Origin: Patescibacteria group bacterium
Lineage (GTDB): Bacteria > Patescibacteriota > Minisyncoccia > Minisyncoccales > JAGMDC01
Direction of reading: 5' to 3'
NCBI GenBank assembly: GCA_034717255.1
Contig: JAYELE010000029.1
Span: 1-25,345 of the forward strand
DNA length: 25,345 nt
A program made the position numbers and the translations under genes. Shown here piece by piece: positions 35 to 11,896 of the stretch (position 1 is its first letter; the number at the start of each line of letters is the position of its first letter). The notes beneath the pieces were generated by a model. The model ran no database searches and was not told the DNA's origin. It saw only the letters and a list, made by a program, of their open reading frames with translations.

Positions 35-3000
35 ATGAAATTTACTCACTTGCATGTTCACACGCATTATTCGCTTTTAGACGGCTTGTCAAAAATAGAC
101 GAGCTTTTGGATTACGCGCAAAAATTAAATATGGATTCTATTGCCATCACAGACCACGGAGTATTATACGGAGCCGTAGAATTTTACAAAAAAGCAAAAG
201 CAAAAGGAATAAAACCAATAATTGGATGCGAAGTTTATTGCGCCATAGACAGAATGGAACAATGCAGACCGAATATTGACAATAAAAGATATCATTTAGT
301 TTTATTAGCAAAAAACGAACAAGGATATAAAAACTTGGTTCAATTAGTGACGCAATCGCATCTTAAAGGTTTTTATTACAAACCCCGCGTTGATGAAGCG
401 CTTTTAGAAAAATACAGCGAGGGTCTTGTCGCGTTAAGCGCTTGTATTGGCGGGAAAATACCAAAATTGATTTTATCAAACCAAATTGAGGAAGCCGAAA
501 AAACAGCTTTGAAATACGAAAAAATATACGGAAAAGGAAATTTTTATTTAGAAATTCAACATCATCCTAATTTGCAGGGACAAGACAAAGTTAATGAACA
601 GTTAATCGCGTTTTCAAAAAAATTGGATATCCCATTAGTAGCTACTAATGATTGTCATTATCTGCGAAAAACTGATGATGAAGCGCAAGATATTTTAATG
701 CTTATAAATACTGAAGCAAAAATAGACGACGCAAATAGAAGAACAATGAAAGGAGAAGATTATTCCGTGAAAAGCCAAGAACAAATGATACAGGATTTCG
801 CAAATGTTCCAGAAGCAATAGAAAACACGCAAAAAATTGTTGAAAAATGCGTTTTTGAATTTAAACTTGGAGAAACTAAACTTCCATATTTTGAAACTCC
901 TGATAATCAAAATTCTGATGATTACTTAAAAGAATTATGTGAGCAAGGATTGATAAAAAGATTTGATATTCAAAATTTGGATAATGAAAATCAAAAAAAA
1001 GAAATAATAGATAGATTAAAATACGAACTTTCAATTATTAAACAAACAGGATTTGCCGGCTATTTCTTAATTGTTCAAGATTTCGTGAATTGGGCAAAAA
1101 GCAAACGAATAGCGGTTGGTCCGGGCAGAGGAAGCGCGGCAGGGTCTTTGGTTTCTTATCTTCTCAATATCACGGACATAGACCCGATAAAATACAATTT
1201 GTTGTTTGAAAGATTTTTAAATCCCGAGCGAATTTCAATGCCTGATATAGACCTTGATTTTACTGATTGGAGAAGAGATGAAGTGATAAATTATATAAAA
1301 GAAAAATACGGGCATAACAAAGTCGCGCAAATTATCACTTTTGGAACAATGGCGGCAAGAGCTGTGATAAGAGATGTTGGACGGGCTTTGCGAGAAGATT
1401 ATTCTTTTTGCGACCAATTGGCAAAAATGATTCCGCTTGGATTTGATTTGAACAAAACATTGGAAAAAATAGATGAATTCAAACAAATTTATCAATCAGA
1501 CGAAAGAGCCACAAAAATAATTGATTTTGCCAAACAATTAGAAGGATGCGTTAGACACGCATCAACTCACGCTTGCGGATTAGTAATTTCCAAAGACCCT
1601 TTAACTGATATGGTTCCTTCCCAATATCCGTCTCAAAAAGACCAAAGAATAATAACACAATATGGAATGCGTTCAATTGATGACCTGGGATTATTAAAAA
1701 TGGATTTATTGGGATTAAAAAATCTCACGATTATTGAAGACACGCTTGCGAGAATTTATAAAATCCATAATAAAAACATAATTATAGAAGATATCCCTTT
1801 AGACGACGCAAAAGTATATGAAATTTTGCGAAAAGCAGAAACCACAAGCGTATTCCAGTTGGAATCAGACGGAATGAAAAGATATTTAAAAAAACTTAAA
1901 CCAAGCGAATTTGAGGATATCATCGCTATGGTGTCTTTATACAGACCCGGACCTATGGCGTTTATTCCAGATTATATTAAGGGCAAAGAAAATCCAGCCA
2001 CAATAAAATATCTTCATCCAAAATTAAAACCAATACTGGAAAACACTTACGGAATAATGGTATATCAAGAACAACTAATGAAAATAGCGCGAGACATAGC
2101 CGGGTTTAGTTTGGGAGAAGCTGATATTTTAAGAAAAGCGGTCGGAAAAAAAATAAAAACATTGCTATTAGAGCAAAAAGAAAAATTTATTCAAGGAGCT
2201 TTAGATAATAAAATTGAAAAATCAATTTCCGAAAAAATTTGGGAATGGGTTTTGCCATTCGCGAGTTATGGATTTAACAGAAGTCACGGAGCTTCTTACG
2301 CGCTGATTGCTTACAGAACAGCTTATCTTAAAGCGCATTTTCCAATAGAATTTATGTCTGCCGTGCTCACTTCTGAAAAACAGGATATAGAAAAAATCGC
2401 ATTTTTAATTGAAGAATGTAAAAGAATGGAAATTGAAGTTTTGGGTCCAAACATCAATGAAAGTTTTAAAAATTTCAGTGTTATCCCTAATCAAAATAAA
2501 ATAAGGTTTGGTTTGCTTACCATTAAAAATGTTGGTCAGAACATAGTGGAAGCTATTGTTGAAGAAAGAACTAAAAATGGAAATTTTATTTCCATAACCG
2601 ATTTTATTGAAAGAATTGCGTCAAAAGATCTTAATAAAAGGTCAATGGAAAGTTTGATAAAAACAGGAGCTTTTGACATATTTAAAGAGAGAAACGCGCT
2701 TTTGCAAAATCTTGAAATTCTGTTAGAATTTAATAAAGAAATTCAAAAAAATAAAGCAAGTAATCAAAAAAGTTTATTTGACGCGCTTCCGGAGAACAGT
2801 CAAAAAAACAATATTGAAATTCGCTTGTCCCCTGCTGAGGAAATTTCTAAAAAAGAAAAATTAAATTGGGAAAAAGAACTTTTGGGATTATACATCAGCA
2901 GTCATCCATTAGACGATTATAAAAGCGTTTTTGAAAAAAATTATTTGCCTATATACAAAATTTCTGAAGATATTAAAGGAAAAATAGTAAAAATAGGAGG

Positions 3001-3226
3001 TATTATTTCTTTAATTAAAAAAATCACCACAAAAACAGGCAAACAAATGCTTTTTGTAAAATTAGAAGACCTCACGGGCAAGATTGAATTAGTTGTTTTC
3101 CCAACAGTTCTGCAACGAAATCCAAATATATTCCAAGAAAACAAAATTGTGGCAGTAACTGGAAAAGTTGATAACCGCGACAGCGTTCCTAAAATTCTAT
3201 GCGAATACATTGAGGAAATAGTATAG
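35..3226 (+). CDS. dnaE: DNA polymerase III alpha subunit
   Basis: 1063 aa; PHP motifs HLHVHT..D, AITDHG, GCE, ATNDCHY; GPGRGSAAGS; catalytic PDIDLDF; LLKMDLLGL; C-terminal OB fold; internal clamp-binding-like QKSLF (nt 2765-2779). Confidence 0.98.
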   Translation: MKFTHLHVHTHYSLLDGLSKIDELLDYAQKLNMDSIAITDHGVLYGAVEFYKKAKAKGIKPIIGCEVYCAIDRMEQCRPNIDNKRYHLVLLAKNEQGYKNLVQLVTQSHLKGFYYKPRVDEALLEKYSEGLVALSACIGGKIPKLILSNQIEEAEKTALKYEKIYGKGNFYLEIQHHPNLQGQDKVNEQLIAFSKKLDIPLVATNDCHYLRKTDDEAQDILMLINTEAKIDDANRRTMKGEDYSVKSQEQMIQDFANVPEAIENTQKIVEKCVFEFKLGETKLPYFETPDNQNSDDYLKELCEQGLIKRFDIQNLDNENQKKEIIDRLKYELSIIKQTGFAGYFLIVQDFVNWAKSKRIAVGPGRGSAAGSLVSYLLNITDIDPIKYNLLFERFLNPERISMPDIDLDFTDWRRDEVINYIKEKYGHNKVAQIITFGTMAARAVIRDVGRALREDYSFCDQLAKMIPLGFDLNKTLEKIDEFKQIYQSDERATKIIDFAKQLEGCVRHASTHACGLVISKDPLTDMVPSQYPSQKDQRIITQYGMRSIDDLGLLKMDLLGLKNLTIIEDTLARIYKIHNKNIIIEDIPLDDAKVYEILRKAETTSVFQLESDGMKRYLKKLKPSEFEDIIAMVSLYRPGPMAFIPDYIKGKENPATIKYLHPKLKPILENTYGIMVYQEQLMKIARDIAGFSLGEADILRKAVGKKIKTLLLEQKEKFIQGALDNKIEKSISEKIWEWVLPFASYGFNRSHGASYALIAYRTAYLKAHFPIEFMSAVLTSEKQDIEKIAFLIEECKRMEIEVLGPNINESFKNFSVIPNQNKIRFGLLTIKNVGQNIVEAIVEERTKNGNFISITDFIERIASKDLNKRSMESLIKTGAFDIFKERNALLQNLEILLEFNKEIQKNKASNQKSLFDALPENSQKNNIEIRLSPAEEISKKEKLNWEKELLGLYISSHPLDDYKSVFEKNYLPIYKISEDIKGKIVKIGGIISLIKKITTKTGKQMLFVKLEDLTGKIELVVFPTVLQRNPNIFQENKIVAVTGKVDNRDSVPKILCEYIEEIV

Positions 3227-3250
3227 ACATCAATGCGTTATAATATTATA

Positions 3251-5084: not shown

Positions 5085-5115
5085 AAAAAAAAGAGGATGA
5101 AAGGGTGTTCATCCT
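5085..5115 (-). terminator. Intrinsic terminator overlapping the stop codon of the 5109-5438 orphan
   Basis: Minus strand AGGAUGAA-cacccu-UUCAUCCU followed by C and U8 (plus-strand A8 at 5085-5092). Confidence 0.8.
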
Positions 5116-5438
5116 ACAAAATTTAGATCCTTAACTTCGCATTGCGAAATCTGAAGGATCTCGTAAAAATCCGAATCAGGGATTAACGGTTTATATGTAT
5201 CACCGTCAAATACCCCTATCCCGACTGATGTTATGTTTACAAGTTGGCCAGTAGCAAATTCGATGAATACCTCGTCGTTATCACCTATTTTGGCCTTCAA
5301 GCTCTCCACGAAAACCTCCGCTTTCGCTTTGAGTTTGTTCTCTTCATTCTCCTTTTCCTGGATCTCTATCAACTTTCTTTCAAGAGATTCCAGCGCAGGA
5401 AAATTTTCCTCCTTTGCTATTATTGTTTTTTCTTCCAT
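5109..5438 (-). CDS. Orphan hypothetical protein, 109 aa (N-terminal charged helix, C-terminal beta-rich part)
   Basis: Start re-assigned from GTG 5483 to ATG 5438 because GGAGG (5450-5446) lies 7 nt upstream, with a second GGAGG at 5455-5451; has its own promoter and terminator. Confidence 0.8.
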   Translation of the reverse strand: MEEKTIIAKEENFPALESLERKLIEIQEKENEENKLKAKAEVFVESLKAKIGDNDEVFIEFATGQLVNITSVGIGVFDGDTYKPLIPDSDFYEILQISQCEVKDLNFVG

Positions 5439-5486
5439 AGTATATCCTCCCCTCCGCAATTTGCGCTTTTGATAATATAGCACTAT

Positions 5487-5540
5487 TAGCGAAGAGAAAA
5501 TTAATTAGAAAATAATTTCCAATCAATTTTCTCTCCGCTA
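5487..5540 (-). other. 25-bp RNA hairpin in the 5' leader of the 5109-5438 orphan
   Basis: Arms 5487-5511 and 5516-5540, 4-nt loop; the three DNA mismatches are all G-U pairs on the minus strand. Confidence 0.8.
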
Positions 5541-5550
5541 TATTTTTTAA

Positions 5551-5605
5551 TTGTTAAAGAACTATTAAATCAACTAAAATATAGCATATTCAAGATATTA
5601 GTCAA
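5551..5605 (-). promoter_or_regulatory. Sigma70-type promoter plus boxA-like element (orphan unit 1)
   Basis: TTGACT (5605-5600)-N16 ending TGc-TATATT (5583-5578); 14 nt later AGTTCTTTAACAA (5563-5551). Confidence 0.7.
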
Positions 5606-5637
5606 GGGGTGTTTTTTAATTTTGTATAAGATATAAT
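5606..5637 (+). promoter_or_regulatory. Putative promoter of the 5646 gene: second copy of the 18-bp motif plus TATAAT
   Basis: GGGGTGTTTTTTAATTTT at 5606-5623; TATAAT at 5632-5637, 8 nt before the ATG. Confidence 0.55.
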
Positions 5638-5645
5638 AAATTATT

Positions 5646-7268
5646 ATGCTTTCTCAAGAAACTCAAAATTTAATAGAAAAATACCAATTATCATATAAAT
5701 CATCTCAAATAAAATCTGATGTCCCATTTATCTCGGTTGATGAGGTCGCTTCAAAAGTGGCTGGTTTTTATGAAAAAATAAAAGGAGTAGTTGATTGGAG
5801 AGAAGAACATCTTTTAAGAAAAAGAGCTATAGAAAGAATACTTAAAAGAAAAATGATTTTACAAGAAAAAAACGAAACAATAGCTGAACCATTAGTTTAT
5901 GAACTTATTCGCGGAGGACATTTTTCAAATAACTCTATTCCAGAAACAAAAATTCAAGATATACAAAAAATTCTAAATAAATACTTTTTTATACTGGACA
6001 ACTCTCCTGAAAATATTAAAATAACAAAAAACAAACAGAAAAATAATGGAAAATCTAAAATCCAGGATTGGCTTTTAAACATAGCAAGTTATGAAATAGA
6101 AAAAACATTATCTTCCACTGAAAAACAAGAAGCGTTAACAGAATATATGACTGATTTAATGGAACAAAGAATAAAAATCAGCCAAGGAGCCATAGCTTTT
6201 GACGGAATGACAGAACAAGAAAAAAATATTCAAATATATATTGCCGCGCTCCGCGCTCTGTTAAAATTTGACGAACCAACAATTATTTATTATCTTATAT
6301 TAAAACAATATCCAGAATGGAATAATTTATCTACTGATTCTCCCCTATTATTAGAAATCGCTAAAAAACTTTTTATTATTCAGGAAACTATAATAAAACA
6401 ATTAAAACATCCTTTATCTGAAAATTTTTTTCATATTTGCAAACAATATAACACTTCATATTTGATATTAGACGACATCATTACACAAGACGCGATAAAA
6501 GCAAAAGAAAATTTGGAAAACCCGGAAACATTGGAAAATTTAATAAAAAAATCTTATAGCGTTAAACTAATAAAATTAAAATCAAAAATAAAAAGAGCCG
6601 CATTATACAGCACTATTTCCATTTTTTTGACAAAAATCGGAATTGCTCTTGCAATAGAAGTCCCTGTTGAAAAATATCTCACAGGAGATTTTAATGTCGC
6701 GACTTTATGGATAAATATATTGCTTCCGCCATTTTTAATGCTTTTATTGGTTATCAGCATTAAACCGCCAAAAAAAGAAAATCTTGACAGCGTGATAATG
6801 GAAATTATGAAAATAGTTTATCAAAAACAAAGAAAAAATGTCTACGAAATAAAAGCGCGCAGAAAAAAAACAGGAGTTTTAAATACTATAATTTCTATTA
6901 TTTATTGTCTAACATTTATTGTCTCATTTGTCATAATTTACAAAATTCTTCAATATCTAAATTTCAGCGCTCCTTCTATGGCAATATTTATCTTTTATTT
7001 TTCAATAATTAGCTTTCTGGGAGTAAAAATAAGAGAAAGTAGCAAAGAATTGACTATAAAAAAAGAAAAAGAAACAATAATATTTTTTATACTTGATTTT
7101 TTTACTCTTCCTGTCCTGCAAATGGGAAGATGGTTTTCTAAAGAATTAACAAAATTTAATATAGGGCTTTTCATAACGATTTTAATAGATATGCCATTTT
7201 CCTTTTTTTTAGAATTTTTAGAACAATGGCGATATTTTTTAAAAGAAAAAAAACAAAAAATTCATTAA
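5646..7268 (+). CDS. Hypothetical membrane protein (large soluble N-terminus, about 4-5 C-terminal TM segments)
   Basis: 540-aa ORF with host-like composition; hydrophobic stretches AALYSTISIFLTKIGIALAI, LWINILLPPFLMLLLVISI, IISIIYCLTFIVSFVIIY, MAIFIFYFSIISFLGV; no recognisable catalytic motif. Confidence 0.85.
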   Translation: MLSQETQNLIEKYQLSYKSSQIKSDVPFISVDEVASKVAGFYEKIKGVVDWREEHLLRKRAIERILKRKMILQEKNETIAEPLVYELIRGGHFSNNSIPETKIQDIQKILNKYFFILDNSPENIKITKNKQKNNGKSKIQDWLLNIASYEIEKTLSSTEKQEALTEYMTDLMEQRIKISQGAIAFDGMTEQEKNIQIYIAALRALLKFDEPTIIYYLILKQYPEWNNLSTDSPLLLEIAKKLFIIQETIIKQLKHPLSENFFHICKQYNTSYLILDDIITQDAIKAKENLENPETLENLIKKSYSVKLIKLKSKIKRAALYSTISIFLTKIGIALAIEVPVEKYLTGDFNVATLWINILLPPFLMLLLVISIKPPKKENLDSVIMEIMKIVYQKQRKNVYEIKARRKKTGVLNTIISIIYCLTFIVSFVIIYKILQYLNFSAPSMAIFIFYFSIISFLGVKIRESSKELTIKKEKETIIFFILDFFTLPVLQMGRWFSKELTKFNIGLFITILIDMPFSFFLEFLEQWRYFLKEKKQKIH

Positions 7269-7294
7269 ATTTATAAATATATAAAACATCTTTG

Positions 7295-7303
7295 TTATTC
7301 ACA
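7295..7303 (+). promoter_or_regulatory. DnaA-box consensus match upstream of miaB
   Basis: TTATTCACA fits TTWTNCACA; single copy. Confidence 0.3.
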
Positions 7304-7360
7304 ATTTTCATCTTAAAATCTTTGATTTTTTATCAGAAAAATTATTAAGCAACAGGTCTA

Positions 7361-8731
7361 ATGAAATATTTTATTATAACTTTTGGTTGTCAAATGAATA
7401 AAACCGACTCGGAACGAATTGCCGGATATTTAGAAAAAAATAATTATAATTCTGCCTCAACAATAAATGAGGCAGATTTAATTATTGTTAATATGTGCTC
7501 TGTAAGACAAAGCGCTGTTGATAGAGTATATGGACAAATAAAAAATTTCAAAAAATTAAAACAAAAAAATCCTAAATTAAAAATCATTTTAACAGGATGT
7601 ATTCTAAAACAAGATTTTGAAAAATTAAAACAAAAATATCTTTCAAAAAAAAATCAGGGCTATGATTATATTCTGCCTATCAACTCTTTGCCACGCTGGA
7701 AAAACATTCTTAAACAAAAAAATATGTTTTCGCCAAAAAATTTAATTTACGCAAATTTTCAAAAAATCAATGAAAAATGCAAATTAAACGCAAATTATTT
7801 AAAAATTGCGCCAAAATATAAAACTAAATTTTCCGCTTATGTTCCTATTATCACAGGATGTAATAATTTTTGTTCATATTGCGTAGTCCCTTATACAAGA
7901 AGAAAAGAAATTTCAAGACCCGCAAACGACATTATAAATGAAATAAAAAAACTGATAAAAAATAATTATAAACATATCTGGCTAATAGGAGAAAATGTAA
8001 ATTCTTATTCATATACTGAAAAAAATACAAACAAAAAAATTAATTTTTCAAAATTATTATATATGACAAACCAAATTAAGGGCGATTTTTGGATTAGTTT
8101 TAGTTCTTCGCATCCTAAAGATTTTTCTGACGAATTGATAAAAACAATCGCTGAATGCGACAAAGTCGCAAAATACATAAGTTTGCCTGTCCAATCAGGA
8201 GATGATAAAATTTTAAAAAAAATGAACAGACCTTACACAATAAAACAATATAAAAATATAATTAAAAAAATTCGTGAAAAAATTCCAAGCGTTGTTTTGT
8301 CAACTGACGCCATAATCGGCTTTCCCAAAGAAACAAAAAAACAATTTGAAAATACTATAAAACTTTTCAAAGAGATCAAACCAGATATGGCTTATGTGGC
8401 GCGCTATTCTCCAAGACAAGGAACTCCGGCTTTTAATATGAAAGATAGTGTTTCTCTAAAAGAAAAACAATTAAGAGACAAAAAATTAACTGAAACATTA
8501 AAAAAAATCGCTATCGCGAAAAATAAAAAATATATAGGAAAAATCGCGCGCGTTCTTCCTGAATATGAAAGAAAAGGATATATTATTGGCAAAACAAAAG
8601 AATATAAAACAATTAAATTCAAAATCGCAAATTTCAATCCTCAAAGCGTAATCGGAAAATTCGTAAATGTAAAAATAACAAACGCTATTCCTTGGGGATT
8701 AAAAGGCGAATTAACAAATAACAAATTATAA
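7361..8731 (+). CDS. miaB: tRNA-2-methylthio-N6-dimethylallyladenosine synthase (radical SAM methylthiotransferase)
   Basis: TFGCQMNKTDSE, NMCSVRQSA, radical-SAM CNNFCSYC, LPVQSGDD, DAIIGFP, YSPRQGTPA, C-terminal TRAM-like domain. Confidence 0.93.
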   Translation: MKYFIITFGCQMNKTDSERIAGYLEKNNYNSASTINEADLIIVNMCSVRQSAVDRVYGQIKNFKKLKQKNPKLKIILTGCILKQDFEKLKQKYLSKKNQGYDYILPINSLPRWKNILKQKNMFSPKNLIYANFQKINEKCKLNANYLKIAPKYKTKFSAYVPIITGCNNFCSYCVVPYTRRKEISRPANDIINEIKKLIKNNYKHIWLIGENVNSYSYTEKNTNKKINFSKLLYMTNQIKGDFWISFSSSHPKDFSDELIKTIAECDKVAKYISLPVQSGDDKILKKMNRPYTIKQYKNIIKKIREKIPSVVLSTDAIIGFPKETKKQFENTIKLFKEIKPDMAYVARYSPRQGTPAFNMKDSVSLKEKQLRDKKLTETLKKIAIAKNKKYIGKIARVLPEYERKGYIIGKTKEYKTIKFKIANFNPQSVIGKFVNVKITNAIPWGLKGELTNNKL

Positions 8732-8733
8732 AT

Positions 8734-8759
8734 AAAAAAAGCAGGGGAAAACCTCCTGC
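8734..8759 (-). terminator. Hairpin right after the miaB stop, with U-tract on the minus strand
   Basis: Minus strand GCAGGAGG-UUUU-CCCCUGC then U7 (plus-strand A7 at 8734-8740). Confidence 0.65.
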
Positions 8760-8867
8760 AAATTATTCTGCTTTATTTATCTCAGTTTATTTTATTTATT
8801 TATTTCATGCGAGAATGTATGTGTTTGACCCATACATCATATTTGAGATCATCAATTGAATTAAAAT

Positions 8868-8891
8868 AAAAAAATAGGACATTTCTGTCCT
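8868..8891 (-). terminator. Intrinsic terminator abutting the stop of the 8891-9199 orphan
   Basis: Minus strand AGGACA-GAAA-UGUCCU-A-U7 with a GNRA tetraloop; the 5' arm starts at the last base of the TAA. Confidence 0.8.
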
Positions 8892-9199
8892 TAATTCCTA
8901 TATCGCGCGTACGCTTCAGAAGTCAAATAAAATTTGCCTTCCATCTCTTCTACATCGTCAAGAGAAACCTCTGTGGATTCCCACATAAACTTGGTGGTCT
9001 TTATCTCTCCACGGGTCTCTCTCAGCTTGGCGACCCTTTTGTCTAATTTAACAACAAGAGCCATAAGACATTTGATACTACAAATGTCTGTTTCCTCGTT
9101 GGGTAGGGTTATCATCCCCTTAGTTCTAGTTGCTAAAGAATAGAATCCCAAATCGGGATCTATTGTTTTTCCACAAACATCGCAAATTCTCTTTTGCAT
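8891..9199 (-). CDS. Orphan small Zn-finger protein, 102 aa, TRASH/MYM-like C-x2-C...C-x3-C
   Basis: ICDVCGKTI ... DICSIKCL; start re-assigned to ATG 9199 because AGGAGGT (9213-9207) lies 7 nt upstream. Confidence 0.8.
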   Translation of the reverse strand: MQKRICDVCGKTIDPDLGFYSLATRTKGMITLPNEETDICSIKCLMALVVKLDKRVAKLRETRGEIKTTKFMWESTEVSLDDVEEMEGKFYLTSEAYARYRN

Positions 9200-9220
9200 T
9201 CTTTTCACCTCCTTTTTAAG

Positions 9221-9274
9221 TTATTAAGAGCTACGCTCATAACTAAATACTATCAAAAAATAACATTATGTCAA
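9221..9274 (-). promoter_or_regulatory. Sigma70-type promoter plus boxA-like element (orphan unit 2)
   Basis: TTGACA (9274-9269)-N16 ending TGa-TAGTAT (9252-9247); 14 nt later AGCTCTTAATAA (9232-9221). Confidence 0.75.
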
Positions 9275-9300
9275 ATTAAATAACAACTTTTTTAATTTTC

Positions 9301-9354
9301 TTGACAAAATATATTTTATTGCTATGCTATAAATACTTGAACAGCTCTTAATAA
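9301..9354 (+). promoter_or_regulatory. Sigma70-type promoter plus boxA-like element (orphan unit 3)
   Basis: TTGACA (9301-9306)-N16 ending TGc-TATGCT (9323-9328); 14 nt later AGCTCTTAATAA (9343-9354). Confidence 0.75.
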
Positions 9355-9389
9355 TTGAATAGAGCAAATATAATAGGAGGACAAGAAGA

Positions 9390-10490
9390 ATGTATGAGAT
9401 AAAATTTGATCCGAGAACATTAGAAACCGTTGACGGATCAGATGTGATAAAAAGCATATTAGATGCTTTAAAATATGGAAACATAGAAAGCGTAATAATC
9501 AAAGGAGGATTGGCTCGCTTTATGTTACTTCTCTCTCAAGGAGAAAACCCTGTTTACGAACAGCTAAGGGATATAGACATTGTTTTGCCTTATTATGGCA
9601 ATCTGTTAAACAATGCAGAAAGTTTGATAAACAAAGAAAGCATATTAAGAGAGAGGTTAAGCAATGTGCTAAATTTGGAGACAATATCTCTTGACACAAA
9701 ACCGTTGAGGGTAAAAAGAGATGTTCCCATTACTTCAACATATTTCGGAACAAGAGATTTAACTATTAACCAAACGCTTATGTTTGTTAAAGATAACTCT
9801 TGGCGCATAGGATATTCCAAAAGATGTTGGAGAGATCTTGTCAAAGAACAGGTTGGTATGATTAACCCATTCGGTCCAAGAATGACAAGAATAGACCATG
9901 GAATAAGAATTCCAACTAACAGGGGATTCTACCGCTTAATGAGAGCTTGGGCTCATAAAAAAGTTGAAGCAATTTGGTTGCCAAGATGGCAAATCAAAGC
10001 GCATTTAACTGAAATGAAAAGAATAGGTCAAAAGCCATTAGGCAATTACCTGTCTTTAATAGTCCGCCAATATGAGAATGAAAATCCTGAGATCCAAGAA
10101 CGATGGGTTAAAATTCTCAATGAGCTTGAATTCACAGAACTAACCACATTCAAAGCTCTCATAGACCAAACAAAAAAGGACAAGGAATTTATATTCACGA
10201 ATGAAAAAATTCCTTTTAGGCAAGAACTAATGAGTTTGATCTATGAAATGAAGACGAGACAAGCGAAGAGACAAGCAAGGACAAAAATCAAAAATTTATG
10301 CGATCATAAATGGGAAATTTTTGTTTGTAATGCCTGTGGTAAAGAATGCGTAATGCAAAGATGCGCAAAACCGGGTTGTAAAGCATACAAACTTCCTTGT
10401 GGTATGAATAATCCTGATGATTTGCCATGCAACAGGATATTTATTTCTGGAGATTGGAGTATATCTCCAGAAAATTTTATATATCTATGA
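9390..10490 (+). CDS. Divergent class II (CCA-adding/poly(A) polymerase-like) nucleotidyltransferase with C-terminal Cys-rich domain
   Basis: IIKGGLAR...RDIDIV (GG + DxD, D61/D63), TRDLTINQ (RRDFTINA-like), RDL and RLMRA segments; eight Cys plus His in aa 304-347; AGGAGG SD at 9375-9380. Confidence 0.7.
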   Translation: MYEIKFDPRTLETVDGSDVIKSILDALKYGNIESVIIKGGLARFMLLLSQGENPVYEQLRDIDIVLPYYGNLLNNAESLINKESILRERLSNVLNLETISLDTKPLRVKRDVPITSTYFGTRDLTINQTLMFVKDNSWRIGYSKRCWRDLVKEQVGMINPFGPRMTRIDHGIRIPTNRGFYRLMRAWAHKKVEAIWLPRWQIKAHLTEMKRIGQKPLGNYLSLIVRQYENENPEIQERWVKILNELEFTELTTFKALIDQTKKDKEFIFTNEKIPFRQELMSLIYEMKTRQAKRQARTKIKNLCDHKWEIFVCNACGKECVMQRCAKPGCKAYKLPCGMNNPDDLPCNRIFISGDWSISPENFIYL

Positions 10491-10492
10491 AT

Positions 10493-10518
10493 GGACGAAA
10501 ATCGTCCTTTCTTTTTTT
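10493..10518 (+). terminator. Intrinsic terminator of the nucleotidyltransferase-like gene
   Basis: GGACGA-AAA-UCGUCC followed by UUUCUUUUUUU, starting 2 nt after the TGA. Confidence 0.8.
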
Positions 10519-10519
10519 A

Positions 10520-10550
10520 CAAAAAAAACCGCTTTAAGCGGTTTTTTTTG
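10520..10550. terminator. Bidirectional terminator downstream of rplL
   Basis: Perfect 14-bp inverted repeat CAAAAAAAACCGCT-tta-AGCGGTTTTTTTTG. Confidence 0.9.
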
Positions 10551-10565
10551 TGATATATTTGTAAA

Positions 10566-11237: not shown

Positions 11238-11756
11238 CTACACTTTAACTTTTGATAAAATATACACTAAACTTTTAATGTTTCCTTCCAATACGCCAAC
11301 AAAATTTGAAACAGGAGCTTTAACGCTTCCAACCAATCTTGCCAAAAGCTCTTGTTTTGAAGGCAATTTAGACATAGCAATAGCGTTATTTGCGTCTAAA
11401 AATTCATTTTCCATTACTCCTCCTAAAATTTTTAAATTCTTGTTATCTCCTGAAAAATCTCCTAAAACTTTAAATGCGGAAACTTCATCTTTATATCCAA
11501 AACCCAAAATAATTTCTCCCTTAAAATCTTTAATTTTTTTGCCAACTTCTAAATTAAAATTTTCAAAAGCCATTCTTATCAATGTTTTTTTTGCGACCTT
11601 TAATTCACAATCCTTTTCTCTCATTTGTTTTCTCAAATCAGTCAAATCATTAACTTTCAAACCTGTAAAATCCGCAAAAATAATACTTTTTTGTTTTTCT
11701 ATATTTTGTTTCAATTCTTTAAGCGTATTTTGCTTTTGTTCTTTTGTCTTTGGCAT
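11238..11756 (-). CDS. rplJ: 50S ribosomal protein L10
   Basis: MPKTKEQK start, FADFTGLKVNDLTDLR, KVAKKTL, ILGGVME, SKLPSKQELLARLVGSVKAP; upstream of rplL. Confidence 0.96.
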   Translation of the reverse strand: MPKTKEQKQNTLKELKQNIEKQKSIIFADFTGLKVNDLTDLRKQMREKDCELKVAKKTLIRMAFENFNLEVGKKIKDFKGEIILGFGYKDEVSAFKVLGDFSGDNKNLKILGGVMENEFLDANNAIAMSKLPSKQELLARLVGSVKAPVSNFVGVLEGNIKSLVYILSKVKV

Positions 11757-11760
11757 AATT

Positions 11761-11858
11761 AAAAAAATCCGCTGACGCAGACAAAAAAATAATATAAAAA
11801 AATTTATTTTTGCCTAAACAGGATTTACTATATAAATATATACCTGCTGTCTTCAGCT
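11761..11858 (-). ncRNA. L10 leader (ribosomal protein autoregulatory RNA)
   Basis: Immediately 5' of rplJ; GAAGACAGCAGG...UAAAUCCUG..AGGC core as in L10_leader; closing helix GCUGA/UCAGC and AGGCAAAAA/UUUUUGUCU stem. Confidence 0.75.
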
Positions 11859-11868
11859 ATTAACCTTT

Positions 11869-11896
11869 AATTTACTTATTTTAACAAATTTGTCAA
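11869..11896 (-). promoter_or_regulatory. Putative rplJL promoter
   Basis: TTGACA (11896-11891)-N16-TAAATT (11874-11869), just upstream of the L10 leader. Confidence 0.55.

Follow-up and report, generated by a model that had tools for sequence, protein, structure and literature searches.

Candidate boxA-led accessory genes in a Minisyncoccales bacterium: resident promoter modules and changing open reading frames

Results and discussion

Contig JAYELE010000029.1 of the Patescibacteria assembly GCA_034717255.1 (order Minisyncoccales) carries three accessory genes, each preceded, at a constant distance from a promoter, by a short box that resembles the boxA element of ribosomal RNA (rRNA) leaders. 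This contig, designated C29, belongs to an assembly of 684,716 bp in 115 contigs (29.7% GC; hereafter G000, the genome under study), and over its length of 25,345 nucleotides it constitutes the window of our analysis; other G-numbers designate relatives' genomes, and L-numbers designate loci or contigs. From sequence comparisons we propose, giving it about an even chance, that the three genes are independent, boxA-led accessory units under Nus-dependent control, with regulatory modules that are resident and open reading frames (ORFs) that turn over.

Three units with a common arrangement

An earlier note on this DNA had described ahead of the three genes a shared design of promoter, boxA and Shine-Dalgarno (SD) motif, closed by a terminator. 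The composite pattern it gave, TTGACW-N13-TGN-TANNNT-N14-AGYTCTT, proved to be real: the window contains exactly three matches, at 5557-5605(-), 9226-9274(-) and 9301-9349(+), for an expected count of 0, and none was found among 100 dinucleotide shuffles, so that the pattern does not occur at the shuffled-background rate. A scan of the whole 684,716-bp genome, as the note had suggested, returned these three instances and no fourth match anywhere. The 12/13-mer box alone, with 2 mismatches allowed, was found 19 times in the window compared to 19.1 expected, that is, at chance level; the non-random part is the combination plus position, and not the box word alone. Nor is the N14 spacing fixed for the box: it is N12 at the 16S promoter, and N6 and N13 in two further units on contig C1.

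Gene 1 (protein P0001, 109 aa; 5109..5438(-)) is a singleton ORF with a coiled-coil N-terminus. Its promoter (5578..5605(-)) consists of TTGACT at 5605..5600, a 16-nt spacer ending in TGC, and TATATT at 5583..5578; the box AGTTCTTTAACAA (5551..5563(-)), a perfect match to GYTCTTTAANA, begins 14 nt after the -10, and GGAGGGGAGG (5446..5455(-)) stands 7 nt ahead of the ATG. Gene 2 (P0002, 102 aa; 8891..9199(-)) encodes a protein with a zinc-ribbon-like CxxC...C...C motif at its N-terminus. It has TTGACA, a 16-nt spacer ending in TGA and TAGTAT (9247..9274(-)), then the box AGCTCTTAATAA (9221..9232(-)), again 14 nt after the -10, and GGAGGTG (9206..9212(-)) 8 nt ahead of the ATG. Gene 3 (P0003, 366 aa; 9390..10490(+)) combines a divergent class II (PolyA_pol/CCA-type) nucleotidyltransferase (NTase) head with a Cys/His-rich C-terminal module. 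Its promoter (9301..9328(+)) has TTGACA, a 16-nt spacer ending in TGC, and TATGCT; the same box AGCTCTTAATAA followed by an extension, TTGAATAGAGC, occupies 9343..9365(+), and GGAGG (9376..9380(+)) lies 9 nt ahead of the ATG. The promoters of genes 2 and 3 are both kept in L084 and in the metagenomic contig L086.

The distances of 7, 8 and 9 nt between GGAGG and the ATGs are thus as the note had them, and so are the other parts of the arrangement. Terminator-like hairpins are found at the three stop codons, at 5115..5094(-), where the hairpin overlaps the stop codon of gene 1, at 8891..8876(-) for gene 2 (kept in L086) and at 10493..10507(+) for gene 3; a larger hairpin at 10517-10553, possibly used in both directions, is common to gene 3 and rplL. 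Genes 1, 2 and 3 end convergent to thrS, miaB and rplL, respectively, and do form independent monocistronic accessory units at the boundaries of housekeeping genes. Their GC content at third codon positions (GC3) is 0.418, 0.408 and 0.308, compared to a genome mean of 0.227, which places them at the 98th, 98th and 92nd percentiles and agrees with the higher GC claimed for them. No convincing match for the three proteins was found in Pfam, NCBIfam, PHROGs or PADLOC. No relevant Rfam family was matched within the window or by relatives' leaders, except sub-threshold L10 leaders, such as the one ahead of rplJ (window 11752-11874(-), 30.5 bits vs 44).

Part of this arrangement is ordinary. The promoter half is generic, since the genome has 95 intergenic TTGACN-N16-18-TANNNT sites, 34 of which have a 16-nt spacer, and many TGN. 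A gene antisense to both its neighbours needs its own promoter and terminator, and self-contained units are therefore to be expected. Common descent of the three modules was rejected: at 37 non-motif positions their pairwise identity is 30%, 32% and 49%, no higher than between random promoter pairs (35 +/- 8.5%), and they are therefore not copies of one part. What sets the units apart is the box: G[CT]TCTT occurs within 30 nt downstream of only 8 of the 95 strong promoters. Median GC3 in G000 is 0.38 for box-bearing strong-promoter genes vs 0.24 for the others (p ~0.01; n=6 vs 24), three of the six being the window genes themselves. That high GC3 would mark high expression was rejected, rplL being at the 2nd percentile. 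Two other strong promoters of G000, at C62:5631-5690(+) and C104:1190-1250(+), share a different leader motif, AGCGCATTAACAAAAGAATA, and drive the GC3-rich genes C62:5710-6642 and C104:1266-2276.

The box and the rRNA leaders

Location upstream of both the 16S and the 23S rRNA genes is the classical positional criterion for boxA, and the same element was found ahead of both in G000 and in its relatives. The 16S promoter and leader of G000 read TTGACA-N16-TATGAT-N12-AGTTCTTTTACAATTGAAT; its 23S leader contains AGTTCTTATACAAT, the sequence ahead of the 23S gene being AGTTCTTATACAATTAAAT. In the 16S leaders of twenty relatives a TTGACA promoter is followed by (A)AGTTCTTTGAAAAT and often then by TGAATAG, and AGAAC(T/A)TTGA(C/T)AAT is present in the 23S leaders of five family members. 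The strict box has 14 matches in the genome, of which 9 are intergenic, for an intergenic fraction of the genome of ~15%. Box copies lie on the coding strand, 5-45 nt 3' of consensus -10 boxes (transcription start positions being predicted).

The published boxA consensus is GYTCTTTAANA (PMC5725501), and the lineage box differs at one core position from the boxA of B. subtilis, which was shown to bind NusB directly (PMC13753749). We scored the boxes with a position weight matrix (PWM) built from relatives' rrn boxes only. The gene-1 box reached 13.0, the 16S box of G000 12.2, the gene-3 box 4.1 and the gene-2 box 1.7. With a hidden Markov model (HMM) of rrn leaders built without G000, the top match in the genome was the G000 16S leader, and the gene-1 box came at rank 7. 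The extension TTGAATAGAGC of gene 3 resembles rrn leaders of G030, G022 and G028. In G000, L084 and L086, the leaders on both sides of the divergent region read AGYTC-N-TTA, with a free sixth position as in rrn boxes. The boxA identity put forward in the earlier note is therefore supported, the box being of the type found in the lineage's own 16S and 23S leaders and in those of relatives; judged by sequence, the evidence for this is strong in the case of gene 1, good in that of gene 3 and weak in that of gene 2. The boxA features that can be tested in this way are present in gene 1, largely present in gene 3 and weakly so in gene 2.

The NTase family of gene 3 provides a broader sample. It is patchy, with members in 23 of the 401 genomes of the order and 10 of 246 genera (HMM search). 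A strict TTGACN-N16-18-TANNNT promoter precedes 11 of its loci (12 if G112 is added by eye), and inspection revealed a box-like element 5-15 nt after the -10 in about 10 of them. The minimum rrn-PWM score was reached at 5 of the 11 loci, compared to 5/95 (p = 9e-4) and 2/44 (p = 2e-3) for background promoters, an enrichment that rests on 11 related and hence not independent loci. The gene-3 orthologue of L084 has AGTTCCTTAAAATTGAATA at the same N14 position, nearer to the rrn form. A common leader of ~170 nt precedes the NTase homologues from G006, G050 and G112 (L059:2674-2845(-), L064:2668-2835(-), L073:2725-2895(-)). The box stands at its 5' end, a 20-bp hairpin comes next and then two more hairpins, and a comparison of the three sequences shows 6 compensatory pairs; this leader has no Rfam match and is a candidate new cis-regulatory RNA. 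That gene 3 is the sole CCA-adding enzyme was rejected, as the genome has two canonical PF01743 genes. A strict box, AGCTCTTAACAA, is located at C94:6717-6728(-) in G000, 37 nt upstream of the canonical PolyA_pol/CCA-type gene C94:5282-6679, and together with the gene-3 box it brings to two out of three the class II nucleotidyltransferase genes of G000 that are preceded by a box.

Several other features of the box-bearing regions were observed. The 23S leaders of all family members (L013:1-185 in G000; L097-L101) run from the promoter through a terminator-like hairpin with a U tract (ATCGCTTT..AAGCGATTTTTT) to the box, the hairpin lying upstream of boxA. The 16S gene of G000 (C79:7214-9074) is 1,861 nt long and thus carries an insertion of ~330 nt. 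On contig C1 (L014), two more promoter-plus-box units lie in tandem at 2290-3250, each preceded by an identical hairpin, GTTCATATCCGATATGAAC; only one of them drives a clear ORF, an orphan of 141 aa, and both adjoin an IS200-like (Y1_Tnp) gene at 1083-1841.

Resident modules and changing ORFs

A direct comparison is possible with the close relative L084, whose miaB is 89% identical to that of the window, rplL 91%, the membrane protein 85% and the flanking DNA 87%. Its divergent control region matches window 9190-9395 at 81% identity and retains the two promoters, the two N14 spacings and the GGAGG motif on either side. The NTase behind this region, in contrast, is only 46% identical to gene 3, and the 121-aa ORF on the gene-2 side has no similarity to P0002 or to anything in G000. 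Between G000 and L084, homology is lost precisely in the stretch from the miaB terminator to the gene-2 ATG (8764-9196). Since the module is kept and the ORFs differ, the regulatory module belongs to the site, and it is the ORF that turns over. A mobile cassette carrying its own promoter would show the opposite pattern. The GC3 of the 121-aa L084 ORF is 0.34, vs 0.17-0.20 in its flanks, and the NTase gene is GC-richer than the rest of its locus in 20 of 22 loci. The neighbourhood contains another variable slot, between the membrane gene and miaB: L084 has a DUF5667 gene there (829-1530) and G005 about 1 kb of extra DNA (L021 4170-5216), both missing from the window (7268 to 7361).

Genes 2 and 3 are accessory, and yet they keep their places. 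The gene-2 family was found in 3 of the 401 genomes of the order, all from one family, and in L086; P0006 is a relative of P0002 at 63% identity. Gene 2 has miaB as its convergent neighbour wherever it occurs, and rplJ-rplL has this position relative to gene 3 in 8 genomes of 4 families as well as in the L084 contig. The note had named as adverse to its proposal the case of syntenic, vertically inherited core genes: synteny was indeed found for genes 2 and 3, but neither is core, both being patchy. It had also asked about empty sites in sister genomes: only the gene-1 slot, next to thrS, is usually empty, and genes 2 and 3 sit at conserved places in relatives, by miaB and rplL.

The gene-1 slot lies between thrS and the membrane gene, which are 17-108 nt apart or overlap in five family relatives (5/7 empty); in G003 it holds an unrelated small ORF on the minus strand. 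Neither this ORF nor the one on the gene-2 side of L084 has any similarity to P0001 or P0002. P0001 has no relative among 5.8e9 clusters, nor in any of 60 relatives' genomes, and an exhaustive phmmer search of 1.84e9 representatives gave only one marginal repeat match, in which residues 41-84 correspond to a unit repeated 8 times in the 4,438-aa P0007 (E = 6e-6). A 10-nt near-repeat brackets the gene-1 unit (5100-5109 / 5604-5613), but short repeats of this kind are common by chance (8 families in 720 nt). Between box and GGAGG, the leader contains a hairpin with 25-bp arms (5487..5540(-)), for which the fold gives -44.6 kcal/mol (z = -7.85). In four brine metagenomes the gene-1 unit is present as two alleles in a ratio of about 1:1, and the gene-2/3 region is almost invariant. 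In run X1, over window 5399-5545, the alleles, of approximately equal depth, differ by 12 substitutions, small indels and an in-frame 6-nt deletion at 5427; the two-allele region covers the leader and the 5' coding part of gene 1. Metagenome assemblies break around this unit.

GGAGG motifs and the missing anti-SD

The strong SD motifs of the earlier note are real and conserved as motifs, but their function as SD is doubtful, because the 16S tail lacks CCUCC. In G000 the 3' tail (C79 ~7190-7260) is GGATCATAACATTT, with no CCTCC within 500 nt; in about 15 relatives it reads GGATCA(Y)(T/A)ACATTT, again with CCTCC absent, and no anti-SD-like sequence was found within 1.2 kb after the 16S tail in relatives; the anti-SD is missing in relatives across the order (loci L030-L049). 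Anti-SD loss in Parcubacteria is published and affects a subgroup overlapping with the lineages devoid of uL1 (PMC9297842); in G000, too, uL1 was not found. The conserved GGAGG thus has no known partner in these ribosomes. Only ~15 genes of the genome are credibly led by GGAGG, and among those that also have a TTGACA promoter, 6 of 7 carry the box. On the gene-2 side, GGAGGTGAAAAAG is kept in five leaders, some of them in genomes whose 16S has no anti-SD. Two other roles for the motif were rejected: L084, G001 and G005 do not preserve the pairing between the box (CUCUU) and GGAGG, and the GTG within GGAGGTG could serve as an in-frame start in G000 and G005 only, being out of frame in L084 and L086.

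Possible Nus-dependent control

G000 encodes nusB, which the earlier note had proposed to look for, as well as S10 (NusE), nusA and two nusG copies. In the mechanism we propose, each of the three independent monocistronic accessory units would be transcribed from an ordinary strong sigma-70-type (extended -10) promoter, and would bear, near position +8 of its predicted RNA, a copy of the box found at the head of the lineage's 16S and 23S rRNA precursors. The nascent box RNA may be bound by NusB-S10, and a Nus complex thereby tethered to the transcribing polymerase. The outcome would be control of expression, and not anti-Rho read-through. It might consist of RNA looping or of a repression of translation, for which suhB, lambda N and the ParE-like toxin gene are examples, or, for the structured leaders (gene 1 and the NTase genes of G006, G050 and G112), of an elongation or folding mode like that of rRNA. 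The modules of genes 2 and 3 would be resident in fixed slots between miaB and rplL, with ORFs behind them that diverge fast or are replaced, and gene 1 is a singleton whose place between thrS and the membrane gene most relatives leave unfilled.

A precedent is available for such control: when boxA lies in an mRNA leader, the Nus complex represses translation via an RNA loop, even at ~100 nt from the ribosome-binding site (PMC5725501), and the targets described are suhB and a ParE-like toxin gene (Baniulyte et al. 2017, PMC5725501). The translational-repression part of boxA action does not need Rho. The antitermination suggested in the earlier note is, by comparison, doubtful. Rho was not found in the genome by two models (Rho_RNA_bind and TIGR00767), the former of which also found it in none of 61 genomes searched in the order; there is no terminator between box and gene, and the genes, 0.3-1.1 kb in length, end at intrinsic terminators. 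Anti-Rho antitermination is unlikely because Rho was not found and no terminator separates box and gene.

Several observations weigh against Nus-dependent control by these boxes. One is the absence of Rho itself, without which canonical boxA function has no obvious target; a SuhB-type protein was not found in the genome either. No box stands ahead of nusB, rpsJ, nusG or nusA, so that the autoregulation pattern of gamma-proteobacteria is absent, and Nus autoregulation was rejected. The boxes of genes 2 and 3 score poorly with the rrn PWM and fall outside the top 40 matches of the rrn HMM; their 12-mers are one T short compared to every consensus. In the gene-2 orthologues of G001 and G005, the box position reads AGTTTAAG, without the TCTT core. 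To these may be added the relatedness of the NTase loci mentioned above.

Alternative explanations

The box could be a lineage-specific leader element that has nothing to do with NusB-S10, such as a signal for RNA processing or stability, the binding site of some other factor that rRNA leaders also have, or an mRNA-stabilising stem-loop close to the 5' end. Rho and SuhB were not found, and long conserved hairpins accompany the box in the leaders of gene 1 and of the NTase genes from G006, G050 and G112. On the gene-2 side, the first bases of the box pair with an upstream GAGC in a small hairpin that recurs in L084 and L086, and it is the GAGC-NNN-GCTC stem, not TCTTAA, that is kept in all three close relatives. 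But the small leader hairpins of genes 2 and 3 are not more stable than shuffled sequences (z +0.1 to -1.8), and a role as 5' stem-loop stabiliser was rejected for these two genes, the fold not being significant. The distance between box and promoter varies (N5-N15; 45 nt at C23; >100 nt in 23S leaders), and therefore fits an RNA signal rather than an element bound to the promoter or the 5' end; moreover, a single core position separates the box from a boxA that binds NusB (PMC13753749). We regard this explanation as unlikely. We find it rather less probable again that gene 1 alone has a true boxA, and that the AGCTCTTAATAA common to genes 2 and 3 arose by chance in A+T-rich sequence or is a local trait of a single old divergent control region, the threefold design then being in part coincidental. 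Their poor PWM and HMM results are what this would predict, the motif with 2 mismatches is at chance frequency, N16 promoters are common (34/95), and the TCTT core is lost in gene-2 orthologues. Against it, the box on the gene-3 side is kept in L084, nearer to the rrn form (AGTTCCTTAAAATTGAATA), and it is retained in most NTase-family promoters of other genera. The extension TTGAATAGAGC copies relatives' rrn leaders, the free sixth position (AGYTC-N-TT) parallels the variation among rrn boxes, and 6 of the 7 genes with both TTGACA and GGAGG have the box.

The other alternatives concern the history of the units. The earlier note had taken them for standardised, portable single-gene cassettes, in which promoter, boxA, SD, ORF and terminator were inserted together at transcription-unit boundaries. 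Each unit is self-contained, the three genes are GC3-rich outliers, and gene 1 is a singleton whose slot is empty in 5 of 7 family relatives and which is bracketed by a near-repeat; the two tandem box units of C1 even lie beside an IS200-like transposase gene. Nevertheless, the modules have no common descent, four families share the position of gene 3 next to rplJ-rplL, and gene 2 adjoins miaB in every genome where it is present; L084 keeps the module in place and has the ORF swapped, with the break at the ATG, and bracketing repeats of this type are frequent by chance. As noted earlier, there is no integrase or attC among the genes of the window; neither a recombination site nor a whole unit at different sites, as expected of mobile cassettes, was found. 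The claim of inserted portable cassettes is thus not supported, and we hold it to be very unlikely. Scarcely more probable is a far-reaching version of our own proposal, in which promoter, boxA and GGAGG together would provide accessory genes of foreign composition and rapid turnover with an expression route of their own. In this lineage, which would have lost both Rho and the anti-SD, resident modules at the borders of housekeeping genes would serve as fixed docks; unrelated ORFs would be swapped behind them precisely at the start codon by recombination, with no integrase, and a NusB-S10 complex on the leader, not SD:anti-SD pairing, would govern translation. Independent boxA-led units with resident modules, in the simpler form given above, remain our preferred reading.

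Comparison with known systems

With the boxA and Nus complex of rrn operons, the units share the sequence class of the box, its presence in the 16S and 23S leaders of G000, its sense orientation in the predicted leader, and a genome that encodes NusB, S10, NusA and NusG. They differ in being short monocistronic accessory protein genes, with nothing to read through, in a genome where Rho and SuhB were not found, and they have no evident boxB/boxC context. Several features are also common to the units and the mRNA boxA of suhB and of the ParE-like toxin gene: the box is within a few to ~100 nt of the ribosome-binding region, there are few targets per genome, one proven target is accessory (the toxin), and gene 1 has an exact GYTCTTTAANA. 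Here the differences are that the final step in E. coli, Rho-dependent termination, is inapplicable, that no Nus-factor gene of G000 has a box, and that the targets are GC3-rich orphans in a lineage without anti-SD.

To our knowledge, boxA on protein-coding genes is documented mainly in gamma-proteobacteria, with an effect that ends in Rho-dependent termination. The kind of signal described here is thus already known from other bacteria; what is added is its occurrence on accessory genes, across genera, in ultra-small bacteria of the candidate phyla radiation (CPR) type, in a setting where neither Rho nor SuhB was found and the anti-SD is missing. If the box does recruit NusB-S10, the Nus factors would have a Rho-independent regulatory role, and one would gain a handle on the expression of fast-evolving genes, possibly related to conflict, as may be the case for the divergent nucleotidyltransferase. 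BoxA has also been reported upstream of CRISPR arrays (as cited in PMC13753749).

The lambda nut site recalls the leaders of gene 1 and of the G006, G050 and G112 NTase genes, in which a box and then a long hairpin directly follow the promoter. However, no N-like protein is known here and no downstream terminators are bypassed; the hairpins, moreover, are of 20-25 bp, compared to a 5-bp stem with a GNRA-like loop in the lambda boxB. Integrons and mobile cassettes likewise have single ORFs of unrelated function in a defined slot whose content differs between close relatives. They depend on an integrase, attC, attI or a shared recombination site, none of which is present here. In the units described here, the slots lie between housekeeping genes, the promoter stays with the slot and the ORF changes; L084, with its conserved module and swapped ORF, is a clear-cut natural case of genes being replaced while the control region in front of them stays.

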